Origin: an uncultured Thiobacillus sp.
Lineage (GTDB): Bacteria; Pseudomonadota; Gammaproteobacteria; Burkholderiales; Thiobacillaceae
NCBI GenBank assembly: GCA_964623745.1
Contig: CAZUVC010000009.1
Span: forward strand, 10,221-74,220
Reading direction: 5' to 3'
Length of the DNA: 64,000 nucleotides
Part shown: positions 2,652 through 25,817 of the stretch, piece after piece
Layout: each line of letters begins with the position of its first letter
Position numbering within the stretch: position 1 is the stretch's first letter
The notes under the pieces: generated by a model
Database searches by the model: none
What the model was told of the DNA's origin: nothing
The model's input: the letters and a program-made list of their open reading frames with translations, nothing else
Translations under genes and position numbers: made by a program

Positions 2652-2676
2652 GCTGTTCAGTCCGGTGATGCTTCGC

Positions 2677-4270: not shown

Positions 4271-4338
4271 ATGCTATTGATGCGCTCATCCCGCTTCCAG
4301 CGGAAATCAAAAGAATGTTTTTTTGATTGATTGCTGAA
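4271..4338 (-). promoter_or_regulatory. Putative tra promoter: box TTCAGCAATCAATCAAAAA (4338-4320) plus -10-like TAGCAT (4276-4271)
   Basis: Identical box with identical 43-nt spacing to TAGCAT at 25731-25798. Confidence 0.6.
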
Positions 4339-5010
4339 ATTAAAATCAGAAATGGATAAAATTATTGGTTGCCAAAAAAAAAGAAAGCCCAAGAAGGGCC
4401 AAGGGACTTACCCGAAAGGGCTTGTTCGCTTGAATAGACGCGAACACAAAGGAATAAGGGGGGCTGAAGGGGAAATGCTTACTGGTTAAGGTCTATAAAT
4501 GGCTGGACAAAGAGCGCCCACCAGTTTGCGTCCTAGCGGAAATCACCAAAAGCTTTTGAGAGTAAAGGCTCAGACTTGGCCTGAAAAACATTGAAAGTAC
4601 AGGTCGCCTCTGTCAGATAAAAACCGGTCAGGTACTGCCATTGGCGGTGTGGGAAAAATGCGTTACTGGGCGTCCGGAGCAGGTCAGTAAAATCGGCGTG
4701 GTCTTCTGCTCCTCGGCCTAAGCGGCCTTTCACGCTTTATGCCCTACAGATCATCGCGAATGTCCGCTTCCTACGGACTCGAACTGGTGCTCCCCCTATC
4801 CTAAGCAGATTTATTGAAAGCAGGCCATCAACAAACAGCTCTTTTAGGTTGGTAAGCTGCCTCTGCCAGCAACAGATGGTCATTGATATCGTTTTGGGTG
4901 AACAGTGTTCGGAGCGGCCGTACGCAAGTTTCCATAATTCACTTGCTGAATGCCCTTATAAAACAGCTAAAGTGCGGAAAATTATTCACGCAAATGGCGC
5001 TTTTCACGAC

Positions 5011-6009
5011 TTAAAATTTGACCGACACGCTGAAAGCGCCAAAATTGTCACCGTTTTCCTGGGCCTGGAACTCGCGCGAACGAAGTACATGGGTGTAACT
5101 AAAGCGTATATCTGACCAGTCCAGGACAAAGCCGAACTGCAGGTCACCAACCAGCGGCTCCTTATCAACGCTGCGGCTATCGCGGAAGGTGTTGCCGTCG
5201 AGAAAGATGTTGTGCGCAACCGCCCGTCCCTCGATGCCTGCAAACAGGTACCAGCCGAAATCGGACACCAGAGCGAAGTCCGCTGAGCCCGGTAGGCCGG
5301 GCTGGATACGTGGCGGCCCGTAGTCGCTGGGCAGTTGCTCGCCGTAGCGCAGCGTGACGCCTGCATTGGCGTAGGTGAACACGTTGCCGAGTGCGGCCCC
5401 TACGTGGGGGGTGAAATCCAGTTGGTTTCCCAGGAAAGTCGTGATCGCGAATCTCCGCCAACTGCGCTGGTAGGCCAGGTTGATGCCCAACTCATCGCCG
5501 AGTTGGGTGTCCCAGCCTTGTGGCTCATCTGCGCCCACGACATCGTGGATGAATTTCTGGGTTTGCTCGGCTAGCGAGGACGGCCCGACGATGCCCAAAC
5601 TGACCCCGAACTGATCAAGCTGCTTGCCTAACTCCACGCCCAAGCCAATTGAACCGTATAGCCAGCCGGCATAGGGACGCTCATCCAGGGGTGGGTTGGC
5701 GACGGTGATATCGCTCGGCACGAACATGCTCTGGCCGAAGGCATAGCCATGGCGAATCTCGCCCTGCTCGGGGAACCACGGCACGAGGCGGGCCAGTTTG
5801 ATGGCCCATTCGGGTGTGGAGGTATCCGATTTGGGTACCCAGACCAACCTCACACCGTTCGTATAGTGCCGGTCATTGCCATAGAAAAAGTCATTTTCCA
5901 GGACGAAGCTCAACGTCCCATGTTTCCCTGGTTCAATTGCCGAGGCCGTGAGCGGGCAGGTGATCCCGATTGCAAGACGTAGCAACGTCGATCCGGCTAT
6001 TTTGTTCAT
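5011..6009 (-). CDS. LpxR-family (DUF2219) outer-membrane beta-barrel, putative lipid A deacylase
   Basis: Signal peptide, ENDFF..DRHYTNG and RPYAGWLY motifs, terminal Phe. Confidence 0.8.
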   Translation of the reverse strand: MNKIAGSTLLRLAIGITCPLTASAIEPGKHGTLSFVLENDFFYGNDRHYTNGVRLVWVPKSDTSTPEWAIKLARLVPWFPEQGEIRHGYAFGQSMFVPSDITVANPPLDERPYAGWLYGSIGLGVELGKQLDQFGVSLGIVGPSSLAEQTQKFIHDVVGADEPQGWDTQLGDELGINLAYQRSWRRFAITTFLGNQLDFTPHVGAALGNVFTYANAGVTLRYGEQLPSDYGPPRIQPGLPGSADFALVSDFGWYLFAGIEGRAVAHNIFLDGNTFRDSRSVDKEPLVGDLQFGFVLDWSDIRFSYTHVLRSREFQAQENGDNFGAFSVSVKF

Positions 6010-7130
6010 GCCATGGTTGCCAGGGTTTTGCGGAAGCGTGCCAGGGACAGGGTGAACAGGCTGGCTCCGATCACGGCCAGGCTGATGAATTGAGGCCAGA
6101 CAATGTCAAGGCCCGCGCCGCGATACAGGATTCCTTGCGCCAGCGTTACGAAATGGGTGTTGGGCGCGGCCTGCATGATGAACTGGACGGCGTCAGGCAT
6201 GCTTTCGCGCGGCGTCATGCCCCCCGACAGGACCTGCAGCGGCAGCAGGACCATCAACAGCAGCAGCCCGAACTGCGGCATCGTGCGGGCGAGGGTGGCG
6301 AGGAAAATACCCATGGACGTGGTCGCGAACAGGTGCAGGGTCGCACCCGCGAAAAACAGCGCGACTGAGCCTTCGATGGGGACTGCAAGCAGGCCGCGGA
6401 CAATGAACGTCAACGAGAACCACGATGCCGCGAGCACGACTAGGGCCATGGCCAAAACCTTGCTGCTCATGATCTCGAAAGGCGTCACGGGCATCACCAG
6501 CAGATGTTCCACCGTCCCATGCTCGCGTTCTCGGATAAGGGCGGCACCGGTGAGCACGATGGACAGCATGGTGATGGCGCTGATGATTTCCATAACGGAT
6601 CCGAACCAGGCCTGATTCAACTCGGGGTTGAAACGCGCCCGCAAGACCAGATCGACTGCGGGCACCGATTCCGCACGATACCCCCTGAGGAAATCGTTTA
6701 CCTCGCCCGAGACGATGGCCTGGATATAGCTGCTGCCGGTAAAGCTCTGGCTCATCCGGGTGGCGTCGACATTGAGCTGCAGCACGGGACTATGCCCCGC
6801 GAGGAGGTCGCGCTGGAAGCCGGACGGGATATGCAGGGCGAAAGTGTCGAGTCCGGCATCCATCCGTGCATCCATCTCGGCTGGCGTGATCAGGACCGGC
6901 GGCAGGAAGTAGGGCGGATAGATGACGTCGATGATACGCGTGGACAGCGAGGAGCGGTCCTCGTCGACGATGGAGATGGGCGCTTTGTGTAGCGTTTCCG
7001 GCATCGCCGTGGCGGCGGTGTAGATCGAAAACGTGAACGCGTAAACGATCAATACAAGCATGATGGGGTCGCGCACGAGGCTGCGCAGTTCCTTGATGCC
7101 AAGATGGAGGATGTTGCGTGCGGATCGCAT
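6006..7130 (-). CDS. yhhJ: ABC-2 transporter permease (YhhJ-like)
   Basis: GIKELRSLVRDP and REREHGTVEHLLVMP motifs; follows rbbA-like gene. Confidence 0.85.
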   Translation of the reverse strand: MRSARNILHLGIKELRSLVRDPIMLVLIVYAFTFSIYTAATAMPETLHKAPISIVDEDRSSLSTRIIDVIYPPYFLPPVLITPAEMDARMDAGLDTFALHIPSGFQRDLLAGHSPVLQLNVDATRMSQSFTGSSYIQAIVSGEVNDFLRGYRAESVPAVDLVLRARFNPELNQAWFGSVMEIISAITMLSIVLTGAALIREREHGTVEHLLVMPVTPFEIMSSKVLAMALVVLAASWFSLTFIVRGLLAVPIEGSVALFFAGATLHLFATTSMGIFLATLARTMPQFGLLLLMVLLPLQVLSGGMTPRESMPDAVQFIMQAAPNTHFVTLAQGILYRGAGLDIVWPQFISLAVIGASLFTLSLARFRKTLATMA

Positions 7131-7132
7131 GC

Positions 7133-9922
7133 TTATCGCTCCTGCTTCCTGAGCAGGGCCGCGCCGAGGCTGATGAGGACGGGAACGGCGATCAACAGGG
7201 GAATAAAGGAATCCCGGAGATCCATGAACCCGAGCCCTTTCGAGAACGTGCCGCGCGCAATCGTCACGAAATGGGTGGTCGGATAGATCTGCCCGATCAA
7301 GGCGCCCACACCCTCCAGGGAAGAGACGGGATCAATCAGCCCGGAGAACTGCACGGCCGGCAGAATGGTTAGCAGAGCGGTGCCGAACAGGGCGGCGACC
7401 TGGCTGCGCACGAAGGCCGACATCAGCAGCCCGAAGGCGGTGGCCGCAATCACGTAGAGGAAGGCTGCGCCGGCCAGGGTCATGAAACTTCCCTTCAGCG
7501 GCACGCCGAACAGGGAGGTGGCCAGTGCGGTGAGCAGCAGGAAATTGATCATGGCAAGCGCGATGTAGGGAATCTGCTTACCAAGTAGAAACTCCAGCCG
7601 GGTGACCGGGGTCACGTAGAGATTGACGATGGAGCCGAGTTCCTTCTCCCGCACTACCGATAGTGCGCTCAGGATTGCAGGGATCAGCATCAGCAATAGC
7701 GGGATCACCGCCGGTACCATGGCCGGCAGGCTGGATACGTCAGGGTTGTAGCGAAAGCGCGTTTCGATGCTGAATTGCCCGGCTGTCGCCGCTGCCCCAT
7801 ACGCCTCGCGCGCCTGGGTGGTGAGCCAGTGCTGGTGCATGCCCTGGACATAGCCGCGCACTGTCTCGGCGCGCATGGGCATGGCGCCATCGATCCAGGC
7901 GCCGATTTGCACCGGTGTGCCGCGCGCGATGTCGCGCGCGAAACCGGGAGGGATCTCGACGGCCAGACTGATTTCGCCAGTGCGCATGCGCTGATCCAGT
8001 TCATCATGATCGCGGATCGGCGGGTGCTCGATAAAGTAGCGGGAACCGGAAAGATTCAGCGCGTAGTCCCGGCTCAGGTTGGTCTGGTCTCGGTCGAGCA
8101 CGGCAAACGCGAGGTCTTTCACGTCCATGCTGATGCCGTATCCCAGCACTAACATGAGGATGACGCTGCCCAGCGCGGCCAGCGTGAGACGAATGGGGTC
8201 GCGGCGCAGCTCGAGTGACTCGCGCCGGGTGTAACTGAGCAGGCGGTACAGGCTGAAACTCTCACGACCGGCGGGGAAGGCTGCTGCGGTGTAACTGGCT
8301 TGCCCTAGAGTGGGCTGAAGTGCGTCTGTAGCGCGTGCAGGAGACACGGATTCGTTCTTCGCGACGGCATCCTCCAGATAGCTGATGAACGCCTCTTCGA
8401 GGTTGTGTGCTCCGCGCTTCTCGATAATCGCTGCCGGCGTATCGCTCACCAGCACTTGGCCGGCGTGCATCAGCGAGATATGGTCGCAACGCTCGGCCTC
8501 GTTCATGAAGTGGGTTGATATGAAAATGGTGACGTTATCCTTGCGCGCAAGGTCGATCAGGATGCGCCAGAAGCCGTCGCGCGCCACCGGATCGACGCCA
8601 GAAGTCGGCTCGTCCAGGATCAGCATCTCCGGTCTGTGGATCATGGCGACCGCGAGCGACAGGCGCTGACGCTCACCCAAGGGCAAGGCTGCCGGCAGAT
8701 CGCCCATAATTTCGGCGAGCCCGAAGTGCTCACCCATCTCCCGCACCCGCGGCTCGATATGTTCCGGCGGGATGCCAAACAGCCGCGCGTGCAGCACCAG
8801 GTTCTGCCGCACTGTGAGTTCGCCGTAAAGCGAGAAGGACTGGGTCATGTAGCCCACGCGGCGGCGCGTGTCGATGTCGTGCGGATTCAGCGGGTGGCCG
8901 AACAGCCACGCCTGTCCTTCGCTTGCGGGCAGCAGCCCGGTGAGCATCTTCATGGTGGTGGTTTTACCGCAGCCATTGGAGCCGAGGAAGCCGAAGATAT
9001 CGCCTCGGCGGATGCGGAAATTGACGTGATCGACCGCCATGAAGGTGCCGAAGCGCATGGTGAGATTGCGCGCCTCGATGGCCACCTCGGTTTCTTCGCC
9101 CGCAGCGCGGGGCTGGATTACCACGGGCCGGTAGCCTTCGCGCTGCACCGCGGGAAGCAGTCTGATGAAAGCCTCTTCCAGCGTACGGGTTTCAGTGCTC
9201 GTCAGTAGTTCCTGCGGCGTGCTGGTGGCGAGTACCCGGCCGTCGTTCATGGCGATCAGCCAGTCGAAGCGCGCAGCCTCTTCCATGTAGGCAGTGGCGA
9301 CTAGCACGCTCATGCCGGGCCGCTCTGCGCGGACACGTTCGACCAACTCCCAGAACTGCCGCCGCGACAGCGGATCGACGCCGGTGGTGGGCTCATCTAG
9401 GATCAGCAGGTCGGGGTCGTGGATTAGTGCGCAACAGAGGCCGAGCTTCTGCTTCATGCCGCCGGACAGCTTGCCGGCGGGGCGGTCCGCGAAAGGGGCG
9501 AGTCCGGTGGCGTTCAGCAGCTCATTGATACGCCGCTCGCGCTCGCGGCGGCCGTGTCCAAAAAGCCTCCCGAAGAAGTCCACGTTCTCGAATACTGAAA
9601 GCGTCGGATACAGATTCTTGCCGAGGCCCTGCGGCATGTAGGCGATGCGCGGGCACACCGTGCGGCGGTGTTGCGCATCGGCCATGTCGCCGCCCAGCAC
9701 CTCGACCCGTCCCGTCTGGATCGCCCGCGCGCCGGCGATGAGCGAAAACAGGCTCGATTTGCCGACGCCATCCGGCCCGATGACGCCGATCATGCAACCT
9801 CCCGGCAACTTGAGGCTAATGGCGTCCAGCACGCGCTCCTTGCCGTAGCGCAGACCAAGTCCACTGATGCGAACCACGGCCGCAACGTCTGGCGAGGGGG
9901 CGACGCCGTCGCGTTCGCTCAT
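7133..9922 (-). CDS. rbbA: RbbA/YhiH-like dual ABC ATPase-permease fusion
   Basis: Two Walker A motifs ([16 protein letters not shown]), LSGGM, DEPT, C-terminal permease. Confidence 0.9.
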
Positions 9923-10992
9923 TGCGGTAGCTTCACTTGGAGACGATCGGGCCAGGCGGCATTGGGATCACTTCGCACGTAAGCGACGCCGGGAAGGCCG
10001 GTTTTCACCTTGAGGATGTGCTTTTTGAGCAGGTCGGACGGGAGCTGCGCGCGCACGCGGAACATCAGTTTTTCACGCTCGCTCGCCGTCTCCACCGTTT
10101 TGGGCGTGAATTGCGCGACGTCGGCGACGAAAGACACATTCGCCGGAATCACGTACTGGGGAGCGGCATCAAGCACGATACGCACCTCGGTGCCGATTGC
10201 CATCTGCCCCACCACGGCAGTCGGCAGGAAGAATGTCATGTACACGTCGCTCAGATCCACCAGATTCAGCACGCGTCCGCCGCTGGATATCACTTCGCCG
10301 GGTCGGGCTATGATGACTTGCACCCGGCCATCGCGCGGCGACTTCAGCGTCGCGTCGTCGATGTCGGCCTGAATGCGTTCGATGTTGGCCTGCGCGGCCA
10401 CGGCAGTTGATTGCGCGCCGGTGACTTGGGAACGCGCGCTGACGATTGCCGACTCCGCGGCAGCGACTTGCGCACGCGCAGCGGCAACAGTCGCCTGGGC
10501 GCTTGCTACCCGAGCCCGCTCGTCGTCCACTGCCTGGGGAGATATGAAGTTCTTCTCGGCAAGCGCCATTGAACGCGCCAGATGCGATCGGGCGGCCTTG
10601 AGTTCCACTTCACGCTGCGCCACCACGGCCTGCGCCATCGCCTTGTCGCTTTCGCGCTGCGCAATCTGGCTGCCCGCCGTGACCACCGCACTGTTGGCCT
10701 GCTGCAGTTGCGCCTCCGCCTGCCGGTGCTGGGCTTCGAGTACATCGGTGTCCATCAGTGCCACGACCTGTCCTGCGCTGACGAATTCGCCTTCACGCAC
10801 GCGTATTTCTTTCACCCGGCCGGCGGCCCGGCTTGCGACGTCGATCTCGACGGCCTCGATGCGGCCATTGCCGCTGACCAGCCCGGTTTCGGTTTCCTTG
10901 AGTCCATAGTGCTGCCAGGCGAAAAATGCCACCACACCGGCGACCAGCACGGCCACCGTTCGGATTAACCATCTCTTTTGCTGTGGGGTCAT
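9919..10992 (-). CDS. yhiI: HlyD-family membrane fusion protein (YhiI-like)
   Basis: SGNGRIEA and [10 protein letters not shown] motifs, coiled coil. Confidence 0.85.
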
Positions 10993-11091
10993 CGTTGTCT
11001 TTACCTTGCGTGGTGTTGTTCGATAAATTCTGGGCCGGTTAATTGCATATAGCCACAGTGGCGAGTGGTTGTTGCTTTCGCTCGTCTGCGC

Positions 11092-11706
11092 TCACGTTTG
11101 CGTGAGGAGGTCGCTGACCATGCGCCGGAACACCCTCACCACGACATCCCGGTCAATGTCGGGATTGCGGATGGCGCGAATACGCAACCCCTCGAACATG
11201 GCCGAAATGGCCTCCACCATACCAGCGAGCGCGGCCGCGTTGTCCTCATGGCCGGCTGCCAGCCGCGTAGCGTGGATGGTTTCGGCGAGGCTGTCCCGAC
11301 ACTGTTTGTCGGCCGCGCGCACGATCCCGGCGATATGCGGATTGCGTGCGGCTTCGGCGACGATTTCAAGTTGTAGTCCAGCCGTGCTCGGGTCGAGATT
11401 GTCCCGTACCCCCTCGACAGCGCGCTCGATCATGGCCGCCTTGACGTCGCTTGCCGCGCGCAGTTCGGCGGTCAGCGTCAGCAGTCGTTCCAGGTCCTGG
11501 GCGACGATGTCGGCAATGATCGCCTCCTTATTCTCGAAGTAGTGATAGATGTGGCCGGTGCTCATGCCGGCCGCTTTCGATATCTGCGCAATGCTGGTGC
11601 CGTGAAAACCGTGTAGGCGGAAACAGTCCGCTGCAGCTGAGCGGATTTGCGTGCGTCGCACATCGGCTCGCGACGCTTCGGTTGGTTGGTAGGGGGAGGC
11701 GGGCAT
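11092..11706 (-). CDS. TetR/AcrR-family regulator
   Basis: GFHGTSIAQISKAAGMSTGHIYHYF HTH. Confidence 0.92.
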   Translation of the reverse strand: MPASPYQPTEASRADVRRTQIRSAAADCFRLHGFHGTSIAQISKAAGMSTGHIYHYFENKEAIIADIVAQDLERLLTLTAELRAASDVKAAMIERAVEGVRDNLDPSTAGLQLEIVAEAARNPHIAGIVRAADKQCRDSLAETIHATRLAAGHEDNAAALAGMVEAISAMFEGLRIRAIRNPDIDRDVVVRVFRRMVSDLLTQT

Positions 11707-11781
11707 GCTTTATCTCCAAAAGAGGGAGGTGCAGAAGTGCGAGAAGGGTAATTCGAATCTTGCGTTTTTTTGAATACTAAT

Positions 11782-11821
11782 ATAGATTGAACGTTCATTC
11801 TAGTTTGAATGTTCAATCTAT
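11782..11821. promoter_or_regulatory. Tandem palindromic operators, probable TetR binding site
   Basis: TAGATTGAACGTTCATTCTA (11783-11802) and TAGTTTGAATGTTCAATCTA (11801-11820) between divergent tetR and acrA. Confidence 0.7.
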
Positions 11822-11886
11822 GCCGTGCAAACCCTTCATCAGGACGCCTGTCAATGCAGGCAGCACACATTCACGAAAGGCTATCC

Positions 11887-13080
11887 ATGCAGACCCCGCG
11901 CATCCTGCAACTCCTACCTTTAGGCTTGGCATTGGCAAGCACCCTGTTGCTCAACGCCTGTAGCGGCGAGCAACAGAATGCTCCCGCTGGCGGCATGCCG
12001 GGCGCGCCTGCAGTTACGGTGATGACGGTGCAGCCTGAGCCAGTACCGATAACCGCCGAACTGCCTGGCCGTACCACACCTTACCTGATGGCTGAATTGC
12101 GGCCGCAGGTGAGCGGCATCGTCAAGGAGCGAATGTTCAAGGAGGGCAGCGATGTCAGGGCTGGCCAGGTGCTATACAGGATCGATCCGGCGATCTATCA
12201 GGCGGCCTATGACAGTACACGCGCGAGTCTGGCGCGGGCAGATGCCAATCTGGAAGTCGCGCGGCAGAAGGCCGTTCGCTACGCTGATCTGGTCAAGATC
12301 GAGGCAGTGAGCGCGCAGACCAACGAAGAAGCACAGGCCGCGCAGAAGCAGGCACAGGCCGATGTCGGCACGGCGAAGGCGGCACTCGACAAGGCGCGCG
12401 TCGATCTCGACTTTACCCGCGTCACCTCACCGATTGCAGGACGCATCGGCCGCTCGACTGTGACGGCGGGGGCGCTGGTCACCGCGAACCAGCAAGCAGC
12501 GCTCGCCACCGTGCAGCAACTCGACCCGATCTATGTTGACGTGACGCAATCCAGCGCCAAGTTGTTGAGCCTGAAACGCGATCTCGAATCCGGCAAGTTG
12601 CAGCGCGCAGCAGGTAATACGGTGCCGGTGCAACTGGTACTGGAAGACGGCAGCCTATACGGCGCCGAAGGCCGGCTGGCGTTCTCGGAAGTGACGGTCG
12701 ATCAGGCCACCGGTAGCGTGACGCTGCGCGCGGTGTTTCCCAATCCGAAGGGTGACCTATTGCCCGGCATGTATGTTCGCGCACGCTTGACGCAGGGCGT
12801 GAATCGCGCTGCCATGCTGGTGCCGCACGCGGCGGTCAGCCGCACGCCGAGCGGCGAAGCGCAGGTGATGATGGTGAACAGCGAGAGCAAGGTCGAGCCG
12901 CGCAGCGTCAAGGCAGAGCAATCAATCGGCGACAAATGGGTCGTAACCGAAGGCCTCGCCGCCGGCGATCGCGTCATTGTTGAAGGCCTGCAAAAGGTGA
13001 AACCGGGTGCGCCGGTGCAGGCACAAGAGGCCGGTTCTGTGCCAGACCCCGCGCCTCCTGCAATTACTGTGGCGAAGTGA
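11887..13080 (+). CDS. acrA: RND periplasmic adaptor (AcrA/MexA-like lipoprotein)
   Basis: Lipobox LLNAC; ELPGRT, SPIAGRIG and QLDPIYVD motifs. Confidence 0.9.
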   Translation: MQTPRILQLLPLGLALASTLLLNACSGEQQNAPAGGMPGAPAVTVMTVQPEPVPITAELPGRTTPYLMAELRPQVSGIVKERMFKEGSDVRAGQVLYRIDPAIYQAAYDSTRASLARADANLEVARQKAVRYADLVKIEAVSAQTNEEAQAAQKQAQADVGTAKAALDKARVDLDFTRVTSPIAGRIGRSTVTAGALVTANQQAALATVQQLDPIYVDVTQSSAKLLSLKRDLESGKLQRAAGNTVPVQLVLEDGSLYGAEGRLAFSEVTVDQATGSVTLRAVFPNPKGDLLPGMYVRARLTQGVNRAAMLVPHAAVSRTPSGEAQVMMVNSESKVEPRSVKAEQSIGDKWVVTEGLAAGDRVIVEGLQKVKPGAPVQAQEAGSVPDPAPPAITVAK

Positions 13081-13091
13081 GGTAACAGACC

Positions 13092-16000
13092 ATGGCCCGC
13101 TTTTTCATCGACCGTCCCATCTTCGCGTGGGTCATCGCCATCGTCATCATGCTCGCGGGTGGACTGTCCATCCTGGCGCTGCCGGTGTCGCAGTATCCGG
13201 CCATCGCGCCGCCCACCATCGCCATCAACGCCACCTATCCCGGCGCCTCGGCGAAGACGGTGGAGGACTCCGTCACGCAGGTCATCGAACAGAAGCTGAC
13301 CGGACTCGACAACTTGCTCTACATGAATTCGTCGTCCGACTCCTACGGCAAAGTCACGGTGACGCTGACCTTCGATGCCGGCACTGACCCCGACATTGCG
13401 CAGGTGCAGACGCAGAACAAGCTGCAGCTCGCGCTGCCACTGCTGCCGCTGGCGGTGCAGCAGCAGGGCGTGCAGGTGGTGAAATCGACGCGCAACTTCC
13501 TGATGGTACTTGGCTTCGTGTCCAAGGATGGCAGCCTGAGCCGGGTCGACCTGTCCGACTTCCTCAACTCGACAGTGCAGGAACCGCTGTCGCGCGTGAC
13601 CGGCGTCGGCGAGGTGCAGGTGTTCGGCGCCCAGTACGCCATGCGCATCTGGATCGACCCGGCGAAACTGAACAGTTTCAGGCTCACCCCAGCCGACGTG
13701 CAGGCCGCAATCCGGGCGCAAAATAACCAGGTGTCGGCCGGCCAACTCGGCGGCACGCCGGCGGTGGCGGGGCAGGGTTTCACTGCATCGATCACCGCGC
13801 AGAGCCGGTTGCAGACCGTCGGGGAGTTCGAGCAGATCCTGTTGCGCAGCTCGGCGCAGGGTGGAGAAGTACGCCTAAAGGATGTCGCCCGCGTCGAAAT
13901 CGGCGCCGAGAACTATGGCATCGTCGGGCGCTTCAACGGCCAGCCCGCCGCAGGTATCGGCATCAAACTCGCCGCCGGGGCCAATGCGCTCGATACGGCG
14001 GATGCGGTACGCGCCAAGGTCGAGCAGATGAAGGCGTATTTCCCCGCTGGGATCGAGGTCGTGGTGCCTTACGACACCACGCCTTTCGTCAAGATATCCA
14101 TCATGGGCGTGGTGGAGACCCTGATCGAGGCGATCATCCTGGTGTTCCTAGTGATGTATCTGTTTCTGCAGAATTTCCGTGCCACCCTCATTCCCACCAT
14201 CGCCGTGCCGGTGGTGCTGCTCGGCACCTTCGGCGTGATGGCTGCGTTCGGCTTCTCGATCAATACGTTGACCATGTTCGGACTTGTGCTGGCCATCGGC
14301 CTCTTGGTGGACGATGCCATCGTGGTGGTTGAAAACGTTGAACGCGTGATGAGTGAGGAAGGACTGTCACCGAAGGAAGCGACCAAGAAATCGATGCGCC
14401 AGATCACCGGCGCACTGGTCGGCATCGGCCTGGTGCTGTCGGCGGTGTTCGTGCCGATGGCCTTCTTCGGCGGTTCCACCGGCGTCATCTATCGCCAGTT
14501 CTCGATCACCATTGTCGCGGCGATGGCGCTGTCGGTACTGGTTGCGATCATTTTCACGCCGGCGCTGTGTGCGACCATGCTGAAGCCTGTGCAAAAGGGC
14601 CACGGCCACGGTGAAGGCGGCTGGCTTTCCGGCTTCTTCAGTTGGTTTAACCGCATGTTCGAGCGCAATACGCAGCGCTATGAATCGGCAGTGGGCAATA
14701 TCCTGCGACGCAGCCTGCGCTTCCTGGTGATCTACGCCGCTATCATCGTCGTACTGGCGCTACTGTTCGTTCGTCTGCCAACTTCTTTTCTCCCGGAAGA
14801 AGACCAGGGCGTGATGTTCACCCAGATCATGCTGCCGGCCGGGGCGACCCAGGAGCGTACCGTCGAGGTGCTGAAAAAAGTCGAGCACCACTTCCTCGAA
14901 AACGAGAAAGACAGCGTGAAATCGATCTTTACCGCGGCCGGTTTCAGCTTCGGCGGTAGCGGCCAGAACATGGGGCTCGGCTTCGTCGGCATGAAGGACT
15001 GGGATGAGCGCCATGAGCCGGGACAGGACGTGAAATCAGTTGCCGGACGCGCGATGGCCGCGTTCTCGCAGATCCGCGAAGCGATGGTGTTTGCCTTCGT
15101 GCCGCCGGCGGTGCTCGAACTCGGCACATCGAGCGGTTTCAATGTGCAACTGCAGGATCGCGCCGGCCTCGGCCACGATGCGCTGATCAGCGCGCGCAAC
15201 CAGTTTCTCGGTCTCGCGTCGCAGGACAAGCGCCTGGTCGGCGTGCGTCCCAACGGCCAGGACGACGTCGCCGAGTACCAGCTCGACATCGATCATGCCA
15301 AGGCGGGCGCGCTCGGCGTCTCGGTGGCAGATATCAACGACACGCTCGCCACCGCTTGGGGCGGCACCTATGTCAACGACTTCATCGATCGCGGCCGCAT
15401 CAAGAAAGTGTATGTGCAGGCCGACGCCGATGCGCGCATGAAGCCGGAAGATCTGTCCAAGTGGTACGTGCGCAACCAGCAGGGCGAGATGGTGCCCTTG
15501 TCGGCGTTCGCCACCGCGCACTGGGCCTACGGCTCGCCGCGGCTGGAGCGCTTCAACGGCCAGTCGTCGGTCGAGCTGCAAGGCCAAGCCGCGCCCGGGC
15601 TGTCGTCGGGCGACGCGATGGCGGCGGTCGAGGAGATCATCGCCAAGCTGCCGCCAGGCATTGGCTACGAATGGAGCGGCACCTCCTACGAGGAGCGCCG
15701 CAGCGGCACCCAGGCGCCGGGGCTGTACGCGCTGTCGCTGCTGGTGGTGTTCCTCTGCCTGGCAGCGTTGTACGAAAGCTGGTCGGTGCCGTTCGCCGTC
15801 ATGCTGGTGGTGCCGCTCGGCGTGCTCGGTGCGGTGGTTGCGGCAACCGGGCGCGGCCTGTCGAATGACGTGTATTTCCAGGTTGGCCTGCTGGCTACCA
15901 TCGGCCTTTCGTCGAAGAACGCGATTCTGATCGTGGAATTCGCCAAGGCGCAGATGGAGCAGGAGGGTAAGGACCTAATCAGTGCCACGCTTAATGCAGT

Positions 16001-16256
16001 GCGTATGCGGCTGCGTCCGATCTTGATGACCTCGCTCGCCTTCGGTCTCGGTGTGCTGCCGCTGGCGATCGCCACCGGCGCCGGCTCGGGCAGTCAGAAC
16101 GCGATCGGCACTGGCGTGCTCGGCGGTACCCTCGCTGGCACCTTGCTCGGCCTTTTCTTCATCCCGCTGTTCTACGTGGTGATCATGCGTCTGTTCAAGA
16201 GCAAACCACAGGCGGCAGAAACAGCCTCTGCAGCAGCCCAACTGGAGTTCAAGTGA
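13092..16256 (+). CDS. acrB: HAE1 RND efflux pump (AcrB/MexB-like)
   Basis: [32 protein letters not shown] and [12 protein letters not shown] motifs. Confidence 0.95.
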
Positions 16257-17653
16257 TGAGTCCGTTACGCACCCTGACCGTCGCTATTGCCGCCACCCTG
16301 GCGAGCGCCTGCACGATGATCCCGGAATACCAGCGGCCCGCGGCGCCGGTGCCGGCGAGTTTTCCGAATGCGCCCCAGGTAGCTTCGGCGACACCAGCCG
16401 ATGCCATCGCCTGGCGTGACTATTTTGTCAATGCGCAACTGCGCCAAGTGATCGCGCTGGCGCTCGCCAACAACCGCGACCTGCGCGTAGCTGCACTCAA
16501 CATCGAGCAGGCGCGCGCGCAGTACCGCATCCAGCGTGCTGACTTGTTTCCATCTGTCGGCGCGATCGGCGAACAAACCGCACAGCGCCTGCCTGGCGAA
16601 CTGACCAGCAGCGGTGAGGCTGGGATCAGTCGCCAGTACAACGCCACGATCGGTTTCTCCTCTTACGAGCTGGATTTCTTTGGCCGCATCCGCAGCCTTA
16701 ACGCAGCAGCGCTGGAGCAATATCTCGGCACCGAGGAGGCGCGCCGCAGCGCCCAGATAAGCCTGGTGGCCGAAGTTGCCGGCACCTGGCTGACGCTCGC
16801 GTTTGACAACGAACGCCTGGCGCTGGCTCGCAGCACCTACGAGACACGGCAGAAATCCCACGATCTGATCCGACGCAGCTTCGAAGCAGGTGTGGTCTCG
16901 GCGCTCGACCTGAACCAGTCGCAGCAGTTGCTGCAAAGCGCTCGTGCCGACGTTGCGCGTTACAACAGCTTCGCCGCTCAGGACGAAAATGCGCTCGCAC
17001 TCGTTGTCGGCGCCCCGGTGCCGGCCGACCTGCTGCCAGCCACGCTCACCGACACGGTTAGCGCTGTGGCCGAATTGCCAACTGGTGTGCCTTCCGACGT
17101 GCTCACCCAGCGCCCCGATATTCTGCAGGCCGAACGCGCACTGCGTGCTGCCAATGCCAGCATCGGCGCCGCACGCGCAGCTTTCTTCCCGAGCATTACG
17201 CTGACCGCCGCCGCCGGCACCGCCAGCAGCACCATGGATGGCCTTTTCAGCGGCGGATCTGGAGCCTGGAGCTTCACCCCTCAGATCCGCATTCCTGTTT
17301 TCGAGGCGGGTCGCCTGCAGGCGAGCCTGGACGTAGCCGAGGTGCAGCGCGACATCAACGTGGCGCAGTACGAGAAGGCTATCCAGAGCGCCTTCCGTGA
17401 GGTGGCCGATGCGTTGGCTGACCGTGCCTCGCTCGCCGAGCGGCTTGACGCCCGGCGCCAGCAGGTTGAGGCCACGCAGGCAGCTTTCCACCTGTCGGAT
17501 GCGCGTTATAAGGGCGGGGCGGACAGCTATCTAGGCTTGCTCGACGCCCAGCGCTCGCGCTACCTTGCCGAGCAGGAGCTGATCATCGTACGGCTGGCCG
17601 ACGCCGCCAACCGCGTGACGCTGTACAAAGTGCTCGGCGGTGGTTGGCGATGA
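16253..17653 (+). CDS. oprM: Outer-membrane efflux lipoprotein (OprM/NodT family)
   Basis: Lipobox [19 protein letters not shown] and LYKVLGGGW motifs. Confidence 0.9.
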
Positions 17654-17999
17654 TAAAGGCGGTGCCCGAATAACGCACACGCGCAGCCCTTTGGTTTTGC
17701 TGTGGGCGCGGTGCGATGGTGCAAGCGGTGATCGTCCGTTTAAGGCTGGCGTTCTCCATCAACCCGTCTGCAATGAGTCGAAAATGACGATTCGGCATCT
17801 TCAGAAGCAGACGTTCCTGAATGACCGGTTGTGGAAAGTGGGGACAGGCTGCTTCGGCCGACGACCCGCCTGTCTGAGAGAGCCTCCCTCCGTCGCTTCT
17901 ATGGTCAAAGCGGTCGCACGAAGTGAAGCCACGGAACGCAGGGTGGGGCAACCCCCTGGTTACAGTGTTGGCAGGCAGGGGTTTTTTGCTGCAAGGTCA

Positions 18000-18038
18000 A
18001 TGTTATAAGAAATTATATGTTATATTTTTCTATAACAT
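18000..18038. promoter_or_regulatory. Palindromic operator upstream of the WYL gene
   Basis: ATGTTATA-N6-TATAACAT (18017-18038) plus an extra ATGTTATA half-site at 18000. Confidence 0.6.
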
Positions 18039-18050
18039 ACGGAAAAGCAC

Positions 18051-18911
18051 ATGGACCAACGGAACGACAGCCCGCAACAACGCCTTACCCTTCTGGAGCT
18101 TTTGCTGGTTTGGGAAGGGCGCATTTACCGTTCGCGGGTATGCGAGCTGTTTGGGATTGGTTTGCCACGGGCCAGCCAATGGATCAAGGAAATCCGCGAC
18201 CTGAACCCAACCTGGATGCAATGGGACAGCAAGTCCAGGAGCTACTTCGCTACGTCAGATTTCTACAAGCGGTACACCAAGGCCTCTCAGGCAGACATTT
18301 CCGAATCGCTTTCCCGTTACCTGTCCATGGTCGGGCTTCCCTATGCGTCGGCCATGGAAGATGGCAGTTCGGTGGCCTGGTCGGCGACGCCAAGCATCAC
18401 CGCCCCGGCACCCAAGACATTCGCCAGCCTCGGAAATTCGATCAGACAGGCAAAAGCCGTCGAAATCGAATACATGTCGATGAGCGAACCGGCTCCGCAT
18501 CGCCGCACGATCTATCCGCACAGCCTGGTTCTCGCCGGCCGCAGGTGGCATGTGCGCGCCTACAGCGAGGCCCATCAGGAATTCCGGGATTACGCACTGG
18601 GGCGGATCCTCGAAGTGAAGCCTTTGGCGCGTCTCGCGGATCGCACCCGATTCGATGACCCCGACTGGAACACCAAGGTCAAGGTTCGCCTGGTCGCCCA
18701 CCCTGAACTCTCTCCTGCGCAGGCCAGAGTGATCCAGGCCGAATACTTCAATGGGACCGCGAGCCGCGTGGAAACCTGCCGCGCGGCTCTGGTCCCCTAT
18801 TTCATTCTGGACATACACGCCGCGATGGACACAAAGATCCAGCACGCGCCCGAGTATCTGATCGCCGTTGAAAACGCACGGGAGGTGTCCAAGTGGCTTT
18901 TCAACCGCTAG
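18051..18911 (+). CDS. WYL-domain transcription regulator (CapW/BrxR-like)
   Basis: N-terminal HTH (WEGRIYRSRVCELFGI); WYL motif IEYMSMS..RTIYPHSL..RWHVRAY..FRDYALGRI. Confidence 0.88.
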   Translation: MDQRNDSPQQRLTLLELLLVWEGRIYRSRVCELFGIGLPRASQWIKEIRDLNPTWMQWDSKSRSYFATSDFYKRYTKASQADISESLSRYLSMVGLPYASAMEDGSSVAWSATPSITAPAPKTFASLGNSIRQAKAVEIEYMSMSEPAPHRRTIYPHSLVLAGRRWHVRAYSEAHQEFRDYALGRILEVKPLARLADRTRFDDPDWNTKVKVRLVAHPELSPAQARVIQAEYFNGTASRVETCRAALVPYFILDIHAAMDTKIQHAPEYLIAVENAREVSKWLFNR

Positions 18912-20368: not shown

Positions 20369-21045
20369 GCCAGTATTGGGAAAACATCGCTGCGAAAACC
20401 GACAGGCAATATGTGGCCGAGGAGTTCGAGTCGACCGCCAGCCGTCTGCTTGCAGAACAGGTTCTGTACTACGCGGACCGGCACAGCCGCATGTCCTACG
20501 GCATGATCGAGCGGTTCGAGCGCGAATTCAAGCACGTCCTCTCCCAGGTCGGCGTCGGCCTGACCGTGAACCGGCAGCTCCGCTATGCGTGCGCGATTCC
20601 GGACAACGGCAGGGCGGGCACGGCCAATACCGCACAAACGCTGCTCGCCCTTGTGCTCCGGAAGATCTACGACGAACAGGCCCGGACCGGGCAGCTGAAC
20701 GATGACGGCGAAGTGATCTGCGATGCGGTCGAGCTGGAGGAAAAGTATCGCCTCTCCACGACGGGCAAGCGCGAGCTGCCTGGACGCGGCGAACTGGACG
20801 GTCTGGTGCGGACGCTTCGGCGCTGGGGCATCGTGCGCAAGGTGGATGAACATGAGTTTCCCGACGCGGTTGCCGGTGACATTCAGCCCTACGTGCTGGC
20901 CATACGTCCCGCGATCGTGGATCTGCTGGGCGAGACCGCGATTACCCGACTGGCCCAATTTACACAGTCCTACGAACCCGCAGGGGAGTCTAACGAGGAC
21001 GGCGACGGTCAAGGTCCGGAGCAGCCAGAGGAAGAAGAAGCATGA
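20365..21045 (+). CDS. jetB: Wadjet JetB-like subunit (DUF4194-like)
   Basis: ATGA overlap with jetA; TLLALVLRKIYDE and IRPAI motifs. Confidence 0.78.
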   Translation: MSQYWENIAAKTDRQYVAEEFESTASRLLAEQVLYYADRHSRMSYGMIERFEREFKHVLSQVGVGLTVNRQLRYACAIPDNGRAGTANTAQTLLALVLRKIYDEQARTGQLNDDGEVICDAVELEEKYRLSTTGKRELPGRGELDGLVRTLRRWGIVRKVDEHEFPDAVAGDIQPYVLAIRPAIVDLLGETAITRLAQFTQSYEPAGESNEDGDGQGPEQPEEEEA

Positions 21046-24000
21046 AATATCTGGAAAGTATCAACCTGGTGCAGTTCTTTCTGTATGAACGAGAGCATGT
21101 CCGCATTGCCGAGATCACTGGGCTGTTCGGGGCAAATGGCAGCGGAAAGAGCTCGTTCCTCGATGCCGTCCAGATCGCCATGTTTGGCGCAAACAGCCGG
21201 CTCATGGCGCTGAACGCCCAGGCTGACGAGAACAAGACGACACGGTCGATTCGGAGCTATTGCCTCGGCCAATACGGCGGTATGCCCGATGACCGGGTGC
21301 GGCCGAACTCGAACACCTATATCACCCTCGTCTGGCGCGACTCGGAAACCAACAAGCCCGTCTCCATGGGAGTGTGCATCTATGCCTCCAAGGACCGCGA
21401 GCAACACGATGTGCTGGGCCGCTATCTCCTCCCGGACGTCGAGTTGACGCTGGGGGATCACCTTGAGACGGTCGACGGCAAGGAAAAGCCGCGGGAATGG
21501 GCCGCCTTCAAGCAGCAGTTGCTGCAGCGATCCAAAGTTTCCGGCGAGGAATGCGTGTTCCAGGAGGCCGATCGCTACATTCGCGCTTGCCTGCTCGAAT
21601 TGCGCGGATCGGGTGGTGCGCCGTCGTACGAGGCATTTATCCGCGCGTTCCGTTTCGCGCTGCGGATGCGCTTCGACAAGACCGTGGACGAGATCGTCCG
21701 CAACGACGTGCTCGAGTCCCGGCCGACGAACATCAAGAAGTTCAAGGAGGTCACCGAGTCCTTCCGGCGCCTGGCCGAGATGGTGGCCGATGTCGAGCAG
21801 AAGATCGTCGACGGCACCGCGGTCCACGACACCTTCGACAATGCTGCCAAGGCCTCCAGAAAAGCCGTCACCTGGAAGGCGCTGGGCCTGGACGCGGCGC
21901 GCGAGCACGCCAACCAGGTGCACGAGCAATGCGAGGGCCGCCAGCAGGAAGCCCAAGTGGCGTTTGATTCTGCTAACAGGGAATTCCGTAGCTTGAAGGA
22001 CGATCAGGAAACTGCAGCCAAAAAAGCGGCCCAATACCGCAAGCTTCGCGAACAGCATGGCGCTCATGCCGATTACGCCGGTCTGGAAGGCCAGATCAGA
22101 GGGCATCATGATCGGGCCGAACGCAATACCAGGGGCATGTTTGACCAGCTTTCCCAGTTCCGTGGGTTCCTGAAGAAGGCTGCGGACGCCGGTGTGCTGG
22201 ATGAGGAGGTCATGCGCTCATTGAGCGCCGAATCGCAAAAACTGGCGGCCTTGCTAGAACGCTTTGAACAGGCTGAATGGACTGAAATCGAAGCGCACCT
22301 GGGCACTGCCGTTCAGGCGGCTCAAAAAGCCATGCAGGCACTGAACGACATCGATGGCACGCTGTACCAGCAGTTGGGCTCCGCCAAAGCCGATTTCAAG
22401 CTCGCCACAGAATCACTCGAACGGGTCAAGCAGGGGAAGATGCCGCTCAGCCCCAACGTCGAAACCCTGATGCGCGAGCTGCGGGATGAAGGCTTTAACC
22501 CGGTGGCGGTGTGCGACGTCGTCCGAATCACGAAGAAGGAATGGCAGCCTGCAATCGAGGCCTACCTGGCAAACAACCTGCAGGCGCTGCTTGTACCGGA
22601 ACACGAAGAGCGGCGGGCATTCGAGGTCTATCGTGGCCTGCCGGAAAAGCGTGCCGCCTACGGCGCCAAGATCGTCATGGAGAGCCGGCAGCAGGTCGGC
22701 CGGCGCCCTGAAGACGGCACCGTCGCCGAACTGATCGAAGGCACCGACCCGGCGGCCGTGGCCTACCTGCGCGGGCTCTTCGGGGACATGGTGTGCGCCA
22801 CGACCACCGCACAGGCCATGGAGCGTGGCAAGCGCACCCTGACGCAGGACGGCATGCTGGTCGGCAAAGGCACCATCGAACGCCTGAAGCTCGTCGTGGA
22901 AGGCGACCTTCGCATCAGGCGCGACGGCGGCGGGCAGCACCTTGAAGCGGCCAAAGCGCGGCTCGCTGCCTGCACGAAGGCGGTGTCGGATCTAACGGCC
23001 CAGAAACAGAGGATCGACGCGCTGGCCACGGTGCTGCGCCGCATCCCGCAGGAAGACCAGGCCCGAGGGTACCTGAGGGGCTTCTGGGACGAAGCGGAAT
23101 CCGCCAAAGTCGATGCAACCGCACTCCAGAGCAAGCTGCAGGGTGCCGCCGACAAGGAATACGTGGAACTCGGCGAACAGGAAAAAGCGTGGTCGGAGAA
23201 GGCCAGAGAACTGAGTGAGTCCGTCACTGCCGCGAGCGGCAATCGCGGCATTGCCGAAAATGCATTGATCGAGCGCCAAAAGGACGTTGCCACAGCCTCT
23301 GCCAAGCTTACGATTGCCCGCGAGGCCGCCGAGGAAGCACGCAAGGATCCGGAGTACGACGCCGATTACGCGTCGCCCCATTGGGACGTCGTTCTGGAGA
23401 AGTACGGCGAGAATTACGAGGACATGGCGGCCTACTGCAAAACGAAAGAAGCTGATGCCCTTCGCGACGTGACACGCGAAGTCAGCAAGGGCAGCAATCT
23501 GCTGGGCGAATTCCTGTCCAAATACCGGGAGCAAGCCGGCGAGCAAGTGCTGGAAGACTGGCGCAAGGGACAGGCCTGGATAGCCGACATCCTCAAGCGT
23601 CTGCGGGACACCGAACTGCTCGACTACAAGGCGCAGATGGAGAACGCCTACAAGGTTTCGCAGGAGACGTTCAGGAACGACGTTGCCTTGGCGCTGAGCC
23701 AGAATATCGAGGCGCTGGACGTGACCATGAACCAGCTGAACCGGGTATTGAAGGAGTGCCCGGCGTTCACCAACGGCGAGCGCTATCAGTTCAAGCGGGT
23801 CATCCGCCCCCACTTCAAGCAACTGCTTGAATTCGTTAAGAACATCGCATCATTCGGCCCGCAAGAAGACTTGCTCGGCGGGGCCGGCGAGATCCCCGCC
23901 CAGTTTAAGGAGCTGCTGGAAGACAAGATTGCGCCGGGGGCCGGAAGCATCAAAAGCCCGCTGGACGACTACCGGGAGTTCTACGAATTCGACGTCGAGA

Positions 24001-24488
24001 TTATTCGGGATGACCCGCTGACGGCCAAACCCAAGGTCGTTGGCCAACTGAGCAAGCGCCTGGGGCCGGGATCCGGCGGCGAGCACCGCGCACCGCTGTA
24101 CGTGATCGCCGGCGCCGCGCTGGCATCGGCCTATCGCCTCGACCGCGGCAACCGCGATGGCATCAGGCTGATCCTGCTGGACGAAGCCTTCAACAAGATG
24201 GATCCGACAAACATCACCGCCACCATGCGCTATCTGCAGGATCTGGGACTGCAGGTGCTCATGGCCAGCCCTGGCGAGAACCTCGGCGTGCTCACTGCCT
24301 ACCTGCACCGCTACTACGACATCGCGAAAGACCCTGTGCGCAATGTGATCCTCATTAACGGCCACGATGTCACGGAAGAAACGCGGGAAATGTTCATGTC
24401 GGACGACCTGGACACATACCCCGAACTCATCGAGCAGGAGGTCAATCGCATGCGTGGGACGGGAACGACTGCCGCCCAGCCGGTGTAG
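21042..24488 (+). CDS. jetC: Wadjet JetC SMC-like ATPase
   Basis: Walker A GANGSGKS, long coiled coils, SGGE signature, Walker B LILLDEAF. Confidence 0.88.
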   Translation: MKYLESINLVQFFLYEREHVRIAEITGLFGANGSGKSSFLDAVQIAMFGANSRLMALNAQADENKTTRSIRSYCLGQYGGMPDDRVRPNSNTYITLVWRDSETNKPVSMGVCIYASKDREQHDVLGRYLLPDVELTLGDHLETVDGKEKPREWAAFKQQLLQRSKVSGEECVFQEADRYIRACLLELRGSGGAPSYEAFIRAFRFALRMRFDKTVDEIVRNDVLESRPTNIKKFKEVTESFRRLAEMVADVEQKIVDGTAVHDTFDNAAKASRKAVTWKALGLDAAREHANQVHEQCEGRQQEAQVAFDSANREFRSLKDDQETAAKKAAQYRKLREQHGAHADYAGLEGQIRGHHDRAERNTRGMFDQLSQFRGFLKKAADAGVLDEEVMRSLSAESQKLAALLERFEQAEWTEIEAHLGTAVQAAQKAMQALNDIDGTLYQQLGSAKADFKLATESLERVKQGKMPLSPNVETLMRELRDEGFNPVAVCDVVRITKKEWQPAIEAYLANNLQALLVPEHEERRAFEVYRGLPEKRAAYGAKIVMESRQQVGRRPEDGTVAELIEGTDPAAVAYLRGLFGDMVCATTTAQAMERGKRTLTQDGMLVGKGTIERLKLVVEGDLRIRRDGGGQHLEAAKARLAACTKAVSDLTAQKQRIDALATVLRRIPQEDQARGYLRGFWDEAESAKVDATALQSKLQGAADKEYVELGEQEKAWSEKARELSESVTAASGNRGIAENALIERQKDVATASAKLTIAREAAEEARKDPEYDADYASPHWDVVLEKYGENYEDMAAYCKTKEADALRDVTREVSKGSNLLGEFLSKYREQAGEQVLEDWRKGQAWIADILKRLRDTELLDYKAQMENAYKVSQETFRNDVALALSQNIEALDVTMNQLNRVLKECPAFTNGERYQFKRVIRPHFKQLLEFVKNIASFGPQEDLLGGAGEIPAQFKELLEDKIAPGAGSIKSPLDDYREFYEFDVEIIRDDPLTAKPKVVGQLSKRLGPGSGGEHRAPLYVIAGAALASAYRLDRGNRDGIRLILLDEAFNKMDPTNITATMRYLQDLGLQVLMASPGENLGVLTAYLHRYYDIAKDPVRNVILINGHDVTEETREMFMSDDLDTYPELIEQEVNRMRGTGTTAAQPV

Positions 24489-24495
24489 TCGTCAC

Positions 24496-25692
24496 ATGGA
24501 CACGAAGGCCCGCAACGCCCTTACGAAGCTGCTGGAAGCCGGAAATCGGGCGACAGCGGGTGTCCGCTCGACGCGGCCGGCGCTGACCCGGTCGCAACTG
24601 GCCGACTACCAGGCCACGCGCTCGCTGGCCGACAAGGAGGCATTCGAGGCGGCGATGAAGGCGGCTAGAGCCGAAGGCGCCGTGGCTCTCACTTGGGAAA
24701 AAGGCTTTGGCGAGGAAGGATTCATCCAGCGCGTCGAATTGCTCGACCTCGATGCGCTGGCGAAACTGCTTGGCGTGGAGACCGCCGCGATCCGCCTTGA
24801 AAAGGCGGCCGCGCAATTCGCCCCTCTGCTGCCGGATTTTCCGGTTCTGAACGACGTGTTGGCTCGCTGGGCCAGCCTGAAGAAGGTCCGTACCTTTGGC
24901 CCGGAGGACTCCCAGGACTGGATCGATGCTGCCCGCATCATCCGTTTCATGACCGCCGCCCGTGAAAACAGAACGGTTGACGAGCCGATCCGCGAAGTCA
25001 GCGCGCGATTGTTCAAGGACAGCAAGCGCATCGAAAAGCTAGCAGCGCCTGTCGATATCCTGCTGACGGGTGATGTGGATGCCGAGATCCGCGAGTCTGC
25101 CGATGTATGGCAGGAAATCGGGGTATTCCGTGAAGAGCAGCCGGTCCGAATGGCCGGGAAAATCGTGGTGGCGCGCACACGAGTAACGGAGTGCTTGGAT
25201 GCGCCATACAGCGCATTTTCCGCATCATCTGTAACCGGGCTGGCCGGCATCCCGAAAATGGTGATGACCATAGAAAACCAGACCACTTTCCATAGCGAGG
25301 CAAAACGCCGCCATGATGAGGAGGTCTTGCTCATTTATACCGCCGGGATGCCCACCCCAGCATGGCGAGCCATGTATGTTCGGCTGCTTGGCTGCTTGCC
25401 GCCAGGTGTGCCCGTCTATCACTGGGGCGATATTGACGAAGGAGGGTTCAGGATTGCCTCCATATTGGCTCAGGATGCCAGATCAGCTGGGCATACCATT
25501 CAACCGTGGATGATGCATCCAGACGACGTTCCAGAGGACCGACGCGTTAAAGCCAGACCGCACACACTAGAACGAATCCGGCGTTTTGCGAGTGCCGCAG
25601 GCTGGGGAACGCTGGGTGAGGAAATTGCAAAAGCAGGCTTTACTGCCGAACAGGAAGGACTACCCATCGTTGGGCTAGAGCAGCCCCAGTAG
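24496..25692 (+). CDS. jetD: Wadjet JetD Toprim nuclease (DUF2220-like)
   Basis: IENQTTF and HWGDIDEGG Toprim motifs, EQE C-terminal motif; start MDTKAR. Confidence 0.85.
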   Translation: MDTKARNALTKLLEAGNRATAGVRSTRPALTRSQLADYQATRSLADKEAFEAAMKAARAEGAVALTWEKGFGEEGFIQRVELLDLDALAKLLGVETAAIRLEKAAAQFAPLLPDFPVLNDVLARWASLKKVRTFGPEDSQDWIDAARIIRFMTAARENRTVDEPIREVSARLFKDSKRIEKLAAPVDILLTGDVDAEIRESADVWQEIGVFREEQPVRMAGKIVVARTRVTECLDAPYSAFSASSVTGLAGIPKMVMTIENQTTFHSEAKRRHDEEVLLIYTAGMPTPAWRAMYVRLLGCLPPGVPVYHWGDIDEGGFRIASILAQDARSAGHTIQPWMMHPDDVPEDRRVKARPHTLERIRRFASAAGWGTLGEEIAKAGFTAEQEGLPIVGLEQPQ

Positions 25693-25730
25693 CTGGGCCA
25701 CAAAAACGCGTATCACAAAACACAAAACAC

Positions 25731-25798
25731 TTCAGCAATCAATCAAAAATACTTTGTTTGAATTAACTGCTGCATAGCCAAGGCCGAGTCCATAGCAT
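25731..25798 (+). promoter_or_regulatory. Putative relaxase-operon promoter: TTCAGCAATCAATCAAAAA plus -10-like TAGCAT
   Basis: Mirror copy of the 4271-4338 element with the same spacing. Confidence 0.6.
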
Positions 25799-25817
25799 CA
25801 CGGGCATTTCACTACTC

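Follow-up and report, generated by a model that had tools for sequence, protein, structure and literature searches.

Two palindromic boxes flanking an oriT-like site on a GGI-like Thiobacillus island resemble binding sites of the ICEclc activator BisC

Master activators such as SetCD (SXT/R391) and AcaCD (IncC) are relatives of FlhDC; their likeness to the system described here is one of regulatory logic. The FlhDC box is a palindrome of 42-44 bp (PMC9962212). BisDC has so far been studied on ICEclc, where BisC carries a DUF2857 domain and resembles FlhC (PMC7423338), and where an earlier study found one motif common to 8 of 9 promoters (PMC9286271). The gonococcal genetic island (GGI) carries its origin of transfer (oriT) between yaf and ltgX (PMC4207684, PMC6736028). 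We found no description, in the literature covered, of how transfer is switched on in GGI-like islands with F-type mating genes, nor any paper dealing with the present operator in islands of GGI-like kind or from Thiobacillus. Here, we analyse 64,000 nucleotides of an uncultured Thiobacillus sp. (contig CAZUVC010000009.1, positions 10,221 to 74,220; this whole stretch is called the window), in which two identical 19-bp boxes precede the divergent transfer operons of such an island. The palindromes to which these boxes belong are very probably promoter operators of some kind, and judged from sequence they are likely, though by no means certain, to be bound by the island's own activator of the BisC (DUF2857) family, acting in the manner of BisDC.

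The two copies of the 19-mer lie at 4338-4320 (reverse strand) and 25731-25749 (forward strand), 21 kb apart, and each is followed by ATAGCAT after 42 nt (TAGCAT after 43 nt), at exactly the places and spacing given in the initial annotation of this DNA. The flanking genes named there, SLT-traLEK on the left and MobH-TraD on the right, are confirmed by annotation of open reading frames (ORFs) and families. A chance origin of the pair was rejected. With up to 3 mismatches, the 64-kb window contains these two matches alone (chance 0.01), and none of 100 shuffles gave two; with up to 4 mismatches, the 2.97-Mb genome contains nine matches, none of them exact apart from the two boxes, and the next best have 3 mismatches. 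Each 19-mer is the strong arm of an imperfect palindrome of about 44 bp. The predicted left operator covers 4295-4338 (strong arm 4320-4338, weak arm 4295-4313, symmetry centre 4316.5) and the predicted right operator 25731-25774 (strong arm 25731-25749, weak arm 25756-25774, centre 25752.5). Their arms pair at 10 of 18 positions on the left and 12 of 18 on the right, and a relative (locus L056) has a perfect 45-bp palindrome in the place of the left operator. The bases between box and TAGCAT had been described as largely different; the spacing is indeed exact, but the stretch holds a weaker inverted copy of the box, and this weak arm covers the -35 position of the outward promoter in each dyad. 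The palindrome, the -10-like hexamers on both of its sides and the position of the pair around the oriT had escaped the initial annotation.

The labels -10, extended -10, leaderless and dif are used here for likeness to the general consensus forms. Outward, the predicted slt-tra promoter has its TAGCAT at 4271-4276 (-), 40 nt from the dyad centre, and the ATG of slt at 4263 follows 7 nt behind it, which predicts a leaderless slt mRNA. The predicted promoter of the relaxase operon has the same hexamer at 25793-25798 (+), also 40 nt from the centre. Inward, a TAAAAT at 4357-4362 (+) lies 20 nt past the left strong arm and points across the oriT, while an extended -10-like TG-n-TACGCG (25707-25715, -; hexamer 25712-25707) lies 20 nt past the right one and is without the last T of the consensus. 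A TA-hexamer stands exactly 40 nt from the centre in all four arms of the window. Palindrome centres were picked approximately by eye and then refined by symmetry, poorly refining sites being excluded from the tally within the box-bearing group. In this group, TA occurs at offsets 40-43 in 23 of 24 arms (other windows: mean 4.8, maximum 10) and TAnnnT in 14 of 24 (mean 0.9, maximum 3). Nine elements with different palindromes have TAnnnT at the same offsets in 12 of 38 arms (mean 1.5, maximum 5), and the L178 lineage is an exception with an offset of 31. The inward arms carry the TG of an extended -10 in 14 of 16 cases; most outward promoters have neither TG nor a -35 element. Since none of the 8 right-inward hexamers ends in T, the right inward promoter is the weakest call of the four.

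The boxes are conserved in relatives, whose closest named members are mostly Thiobacillus records. We collected loci from two relaxase scans, accepted up to 4 mismatches to the box and excluded loci with short flanks; many of the loci are near duplicates. Where the relaxase is at least 90% identical, all 37 loci have a box ahead of its operon; at 64-90% identity 14 of 16 do, and below that 0 of 91. Ahead of slt, the corresponding counts are 3/3, 12/15 and 0/42, and in 12 of the 15 slt loci with a box the ATG lies 6-7 nt behind the -10 (exceptions: L056, L057 and L119). Of the single 14-nt matches in other genomes, the five that were examined (L194, L195, L214, L215 and L216) were set aside, as they fall in or near host genes and have no dyad. 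Locus L059 is an apparent recombinant, in which slt-traLEK from a distant lineage (29-52% identity) are joined to the oriT, boxes and relaxase of this lineage.

Between the boxes lie the oriT-like site and a variable cargo. The former (4409-4447, +) consists of an ACC(C/G)AAAGGG core and a hairpin (4423-4429/4440-4446), and its probable role is deduced from its position and from the anatomy of the GGI oriT, which is nicked 3 nt 5' of an inverted repeat (PMC6736028). Core and hairpin are conserved between the boxes of relatives, and in every listed locus that shows an oriT-like site together with an slt-side box they stand on the slt side and keep one orientation. The cargo (4700-25696, its left edge known only to about 4610-4730) encodes LpxR, ABC and RND efflux systems, TetR and WYL proteins, and a Wadjet jetABCD-like system. 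Backbone homology stops at about 4610-4730 and restarts at 25697-25702; the cargo is therefore inserted between the oriT and the right box. Relatives without cargo have their boxes 244-265 bp apart (L047, L052, L056, L057 and L059), and in cargo-bearing loci the distance is 4.0-21.4 kb (L027, L107, L116, L120 and the window). Wadjet occupies this hotspot in many close relatives. In the window (24367-25715), the inward promoter of the right box is predicted to start right where jetD ends (25692), and its transcripts would enter that gene in antisense. The efflux block (cargo at 5010-17861) has a counterpart elsewhere on the island of genome G436 (L209-L210), at 81-87% identity and beside a different Wadjet-like cluster.

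The motif, which the initial annotation did not recognise, is already published as the ICEclc BisC site. The last 12 nt of the strong arm are identical to the last 12 nt of P81655, a BisC site mapped by chromatin immunoprecipitation (12 of the 15 nt of the motif), and the 20-nt spacing to a -10-like hexamer is common to both; the box variant of L047/L059 has 11 nt in common with the P73676 site. The end of the 15-nt BisC motif, TTG(A/T)TTGCTG, is present in the boxes, and the 11-nt consensus has six matches in 2.97 Mb, two of which are these boxes. In our own reading of the 11 published ICEclc sites, xAnnnT stands at a distance of exactly 20 nt behind the motif in five, and another five show no such fit; these hexamers are not called -10 elements in the available text of the paper. 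The spacing from arm to hexamer in the window is 20 nt in three of four arms and 21 nt in the fourth. At the ICEclc traI promoter (PtraI), TATATC lies 20 nt past the motif and is followed by the CCAAAGGG core, and seven ICEclc-type traI promoters that we retrieved have the same layout. Given this shared layout, the inward arm of the left box is the positional counterpart of PtraI. When all 11-mers of the window were scored with a profile built from the seven, the four window arms, at their predicted places, ranked within the best 0.015%, 0.015%, 0.24% and 0.29%, a result that is partly circular because the register of the profile was set by the consensus pattern.

A candidate for the binding protein is encoded on another contig of the same genome, C45, in the order parA-parB-DUF2857-rep-inrR-ssb-topB (rep standing for a rep-like gene and inrR for an inrR-like gene, PFL_4669). 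This contig is probably the other end of the window's island, because of the layout of G436 and the 98% identity of the DUF2857 proteins. In the window, a dif-like site at 32105-32132 (+) marks the right island end, and its partner half-site lies just upstream of parA on C45; in the complete chromosome of G436, this same pair of sites bounds a 173-kb stretch with both the transfer and the regulator module. The DUF2857 gene and the transfer genes share an element in G436 and G437, and by the same reasoning would do so in the window's own genome. The traF/H/G genes were not found in the draft assembly of the latter and are present in G436 and G437. The DUF2857 protein of C45 matches its family above the cut-off (E 4.8e-18). 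Of 55 genomes selected by this relaxase, 47 have a match to DUF2857 (36 above the cut-off), against 0 of 14 controls. Some of these matches are fragments or copies of the ICEclc type, and the set includes two duplicate pairs and omits four planned loci. A sample of 60 genomes from the genus gave DUF2857 in 7 of 11 with a relaxase at least 80% identical (one copy partial); the 48 without a relaxase match have one full copy of this kind by score and length, one ICEclc-type copy and six fragments only. The AF2 model of the protein has a pLDDT of 95, and its only high-probability matches in the Protein Data Bank (PDB) are FlhD (probability up to 0.92) and FlhC (0.72). The neighbouring ParB has GGNTR and ENxxR motifs, a TIGR03764 match below the cut-off and a conserved extra C-terminal domain that is common to GGI-like lineages (probability 93-99). 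Close to the inrR-like gene, on its upstream side, tandem repeats of 56-59 bp with short palindromes occur at L223 7100-7272 (C45), L258 15175-15646 and L263 2331-2836, in 3, 6-7 and 9 copies, respectively. They are candidate loading sites for ParB/BisD and differ in sequence from the published bisS.

In the mechanism that we propose, a BisC dimer would bind each palindrome, anchored by the strong distal arm, and the weak proximal arm would replace the -35 element so that RNA polymerase is recruited to TAGCAT. BisC and its ParB-like partner, which may load at the repeats near inrR and, like BisD on ICEclc, reach the boxes by sliding, would thereby activate the slt-tra and relaxase-traD operons together, and the same dyads may also fire inward across the oriT. 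The initial annotation had suggested activator-dependent promoters under one master regulator, and this proposal fits the conserved box and spacing, the ATG close behind the -10 and the predicted FlhD/FlhC-like fold of the candidate. In locus L048, the stop codon of yaa (the gene that closes the relaxase operon) lies about 270 nt upstream of the start of parA, on the same strand and across a palindromic attachment site. Speculatively, excision at dif would join the relaxase operon head-to-tail to parA-bisD-bisC and so create feedback.

Several observations weigh against this assignment to BisC. The protein is only 18% identical to the ICEclc-type BisC (profile probability 90.7), all Foldseek E-values of its model exceed 0.4, and in sequence searches FlhD did no better than designed repeat proteins. 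The C-terminal domain of its ParB could not be aligned to the ICEclc-type one (probability <3). Four draft genomes (84-100% complete) have a close relaxase and neither DUF2857 nor ParB, and the identity of the relaxase is as good a predictor of the box as BisC. Box likeness does not simply follow BisC likeness either, because lineages with a BisC 24-29% identical to this one carry different palindromes. The strong arm is adjacent to the promoter in ICEclc, but distal to both operons here. Finally, scanning for more copies of the motif, as the initial annotation had proposed, gave no additional box on C45 or in those parts of the G436, G437 and G439 islands that were retrieved, against 11 sites in ICEclc.

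Other readings of the 19-mers have to be weighed against a BisC operator. The annotation's own alternative treats them as inverted repeats that bracket the 21-kb cargo, and thus as the ends of a transposon or of a segment that can invert; in its favour, they are inverted and enclose a cargo that varies between relatives. It is refuted by the persistence of both boxes, 244-265 bp apart, in cargo-free relatives, and we give it hardly any credence. In addition, the boxes do not mark the edges of the cargo, which begin about 270-390 nt inward of the left box and 30 nt inward of the right one, the oriT-like site keeps its side and orientation in the listed loci with an slt-side box, and no transposase or recombinase family was found among the scanned long ORFs between the boxes. 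A local DNA-binding protein is a more serious rival. The third gene of the slt operon, x1 (3032-3271, -), encodes a conserved 79-aa protein without a family that might bind the palindromes, possibly through a ribbon-helix-helix fold, as an autoregulator or a helper of the relaxosome, much like TraY or AcaB. Its gene belongs to the regulated operon itself; across 47 aligned sequences the protein keeps an N-terminal stretch unchanged, and it is modelled with three helices and a free N-terminus. A regulon limited to the oriT would suit such a local factor, and a weak lead points to PF18064, a family of ParB C-terminal DNA-binding domains that covers 12% of one cluster. We nevertheless consider x1 a decidedly improbable binder. 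In L059, x1 is only 38% identical, yet both boxes are present and BisC is 73% identical; conversely, L164, L277, L278 and L279 have an x1 at 60% but a different palindrome, and their aligned BisC copies are about 28% identical. Moreover, x1 has no match in Pfam, NCBIfam or the PDB, and its binding would leave the match to the ICEclc motif unexplained.

The palindromes could also be repressor or relaxosome sites, bound by the yaf-like protein, the relaxase, ParB or a host factor and placed over promoters that need no activator. The TG of the inward arms speaks for this, as an extended -10 can work without a -35 element, and relaxase identity co-varies with the box. The GGI has yaf and ltgX promoters in the same interval (PMC6736028), and its ParA and ParB interact with TraI (PMC8716806). 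On the other hand, most outward promoters have neither TG nor -35, a MOBH relaxase cleaves single-stranded oriT (PMC6736028), and the yaf-like protein is no closer where the box is present (29-39% identity in the box-bearing L056, L057, L058 and L145) than where it is absent (35-37% in L128 and L178). We judge this explanation to be quite unlikely, and retain activation by BisC as the preferred one.

The operons themselves are of the F type. To the left, slt (3799-4263, -; 154 aa from the ATG at 4263) is a lytic transglycosylase and the counterpart of ltgX; it is followed by an OmpA-domain protein of 173 aa (3281-3802, -; yag counterpart, PMC4207684), x1, and traA, traL, traE, traK and the start of a likely traB (1-3030, -), the operon extending beyond the window. 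To the right, a 144-aa ORF (25833-26267, +; start at 25818 by the ORF finder) has the position of GGI yaf; it has no family match and atlas scores under 0.8, and its Yaf label is by position alone. An 8-bp inverted repeat (25799-25835) directly follows TAGCAT and covers the likely start codon of this ORF; its counterpart in L050 is a 7-bp version of different sequence. The MobH relaxase gene (26264-28339, +; NF041494, E 1.8e-97, above the cut-off) comes next, and then the coupling protein gene traD with a DUF4400 gene, the yaa counterpart (28305-31116, +; DUF4400 at 30397-31116). A pair of a Gp49/RelE-like toxin and a helix-turn-helix antitoxin (31215-31908), variably present in relatives, lies between yaa and dif. 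In L048, a fully palindromic dif-like attachment site (14822-14865) joins yaa to parA, and in L031 (15690), L051 and L122 one arm of such a site follows the right island end, which suggests tandem islands at dif. Outside the island, an integron integrase (44244-45224; TIGR02249, E 1e-150) stands next to a run of short low-GC ORFs on one strand (45347-53900) that resembles a cassette array. In L260, L259 and L208, repeated hairpin-rich leaders of 100-200 bp, which resemble single-strand promoters, precede small leading-region genes; they were not found in the window's own assembly, and no box was seen upstream of the leading-region repeats of G436 and G437. One of the four RNA runs covered, out of 21 listed (all as assembled contigs, giving no starts, strand or level), had high depth at traA and a smaller rise at the oriT, and was not counted as evidence.

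If the BisC assignment is right, the BisC operator is also at work on an unrelated mating apparatus. Two operators, four predicted promoters and an oriT within 250 bp would then make a convenient test object, and the lineages would supply natural pairs of operator and activator, differing in sequence, with which specificity can be mapped. The hotspot cargo beside this oriT includes efflux pumps and defence systems, and the island switch would govern their spread among Betaproteobacteria. A wider picture, possible but rather unlikely to hold in full, is that the GGI-like family as a whole uses a single-chain FlhD/FlhC-like activator at two bidirectional palindromes, with two outward promoters and two converging across the oriT. 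The lineage-specific palindrome at fixed geometry would then be a private activation code, the excised circle would close a positive feedback loop that ICEclc builds with the alpA promoter, and copies with Wadjet would have antisense transcription into jetD.

This is not a new class of regulation; the motif is already known from ICEclc. The BisDC regulon of ICEclc in Pseudomonas (PMC12409273, PMC9286271, PMC7423338) has the same half-site sequence, a dyad of about 42-44 bp with one weak arm, the 20-nt spacing, a promoter that runs across the CCAAAGGG oriT core towards traI, and DUF2857 behind parA-parB, followed by inrR, ssb and topB. The Thiobacillus island differs in its F-type mating genes, its distant BisC (18% identity) and the unalignable C-terminal domain of its ParB. 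Here, parA directly follows the dif-like end, with no room for alpA or bisR; two dyads were found instead of 11 sites, and neither of them stands ahead of the parA operon. Each has hexamers to its left and right, and its strong arm is the one distal to the operon. The GGI and GGI-like type IV secretion systems (PMC4207684, PMC6736028) share the gene order yaa-traD-traI-yaf / oriT / ltgX-yag-traA-traLEKB. The GGI also has the MOBH relaxase, the hairpin oriT between divergent operons, the dif-like ends and parA-parB at the far end. In the present lineage, the interval around the oriT is split by a variable cargo hotspot of 4-27 kb and x1 is added; neither palindromic operators nor BisC are described in the available parts of these two papers. 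Non-Neisseria GGI-like systems are reported to be without parA/parB and a specific insertion site (PMC4207684), while this lineage has both. Lastly, FlhDC resembles the present system in its master-activator logic and palindrome size, and the candidate is modelled as an FlhD-like part followed by an FlhC-like one; the arm sequence is different, and the two parts apparently reside in one chain here.

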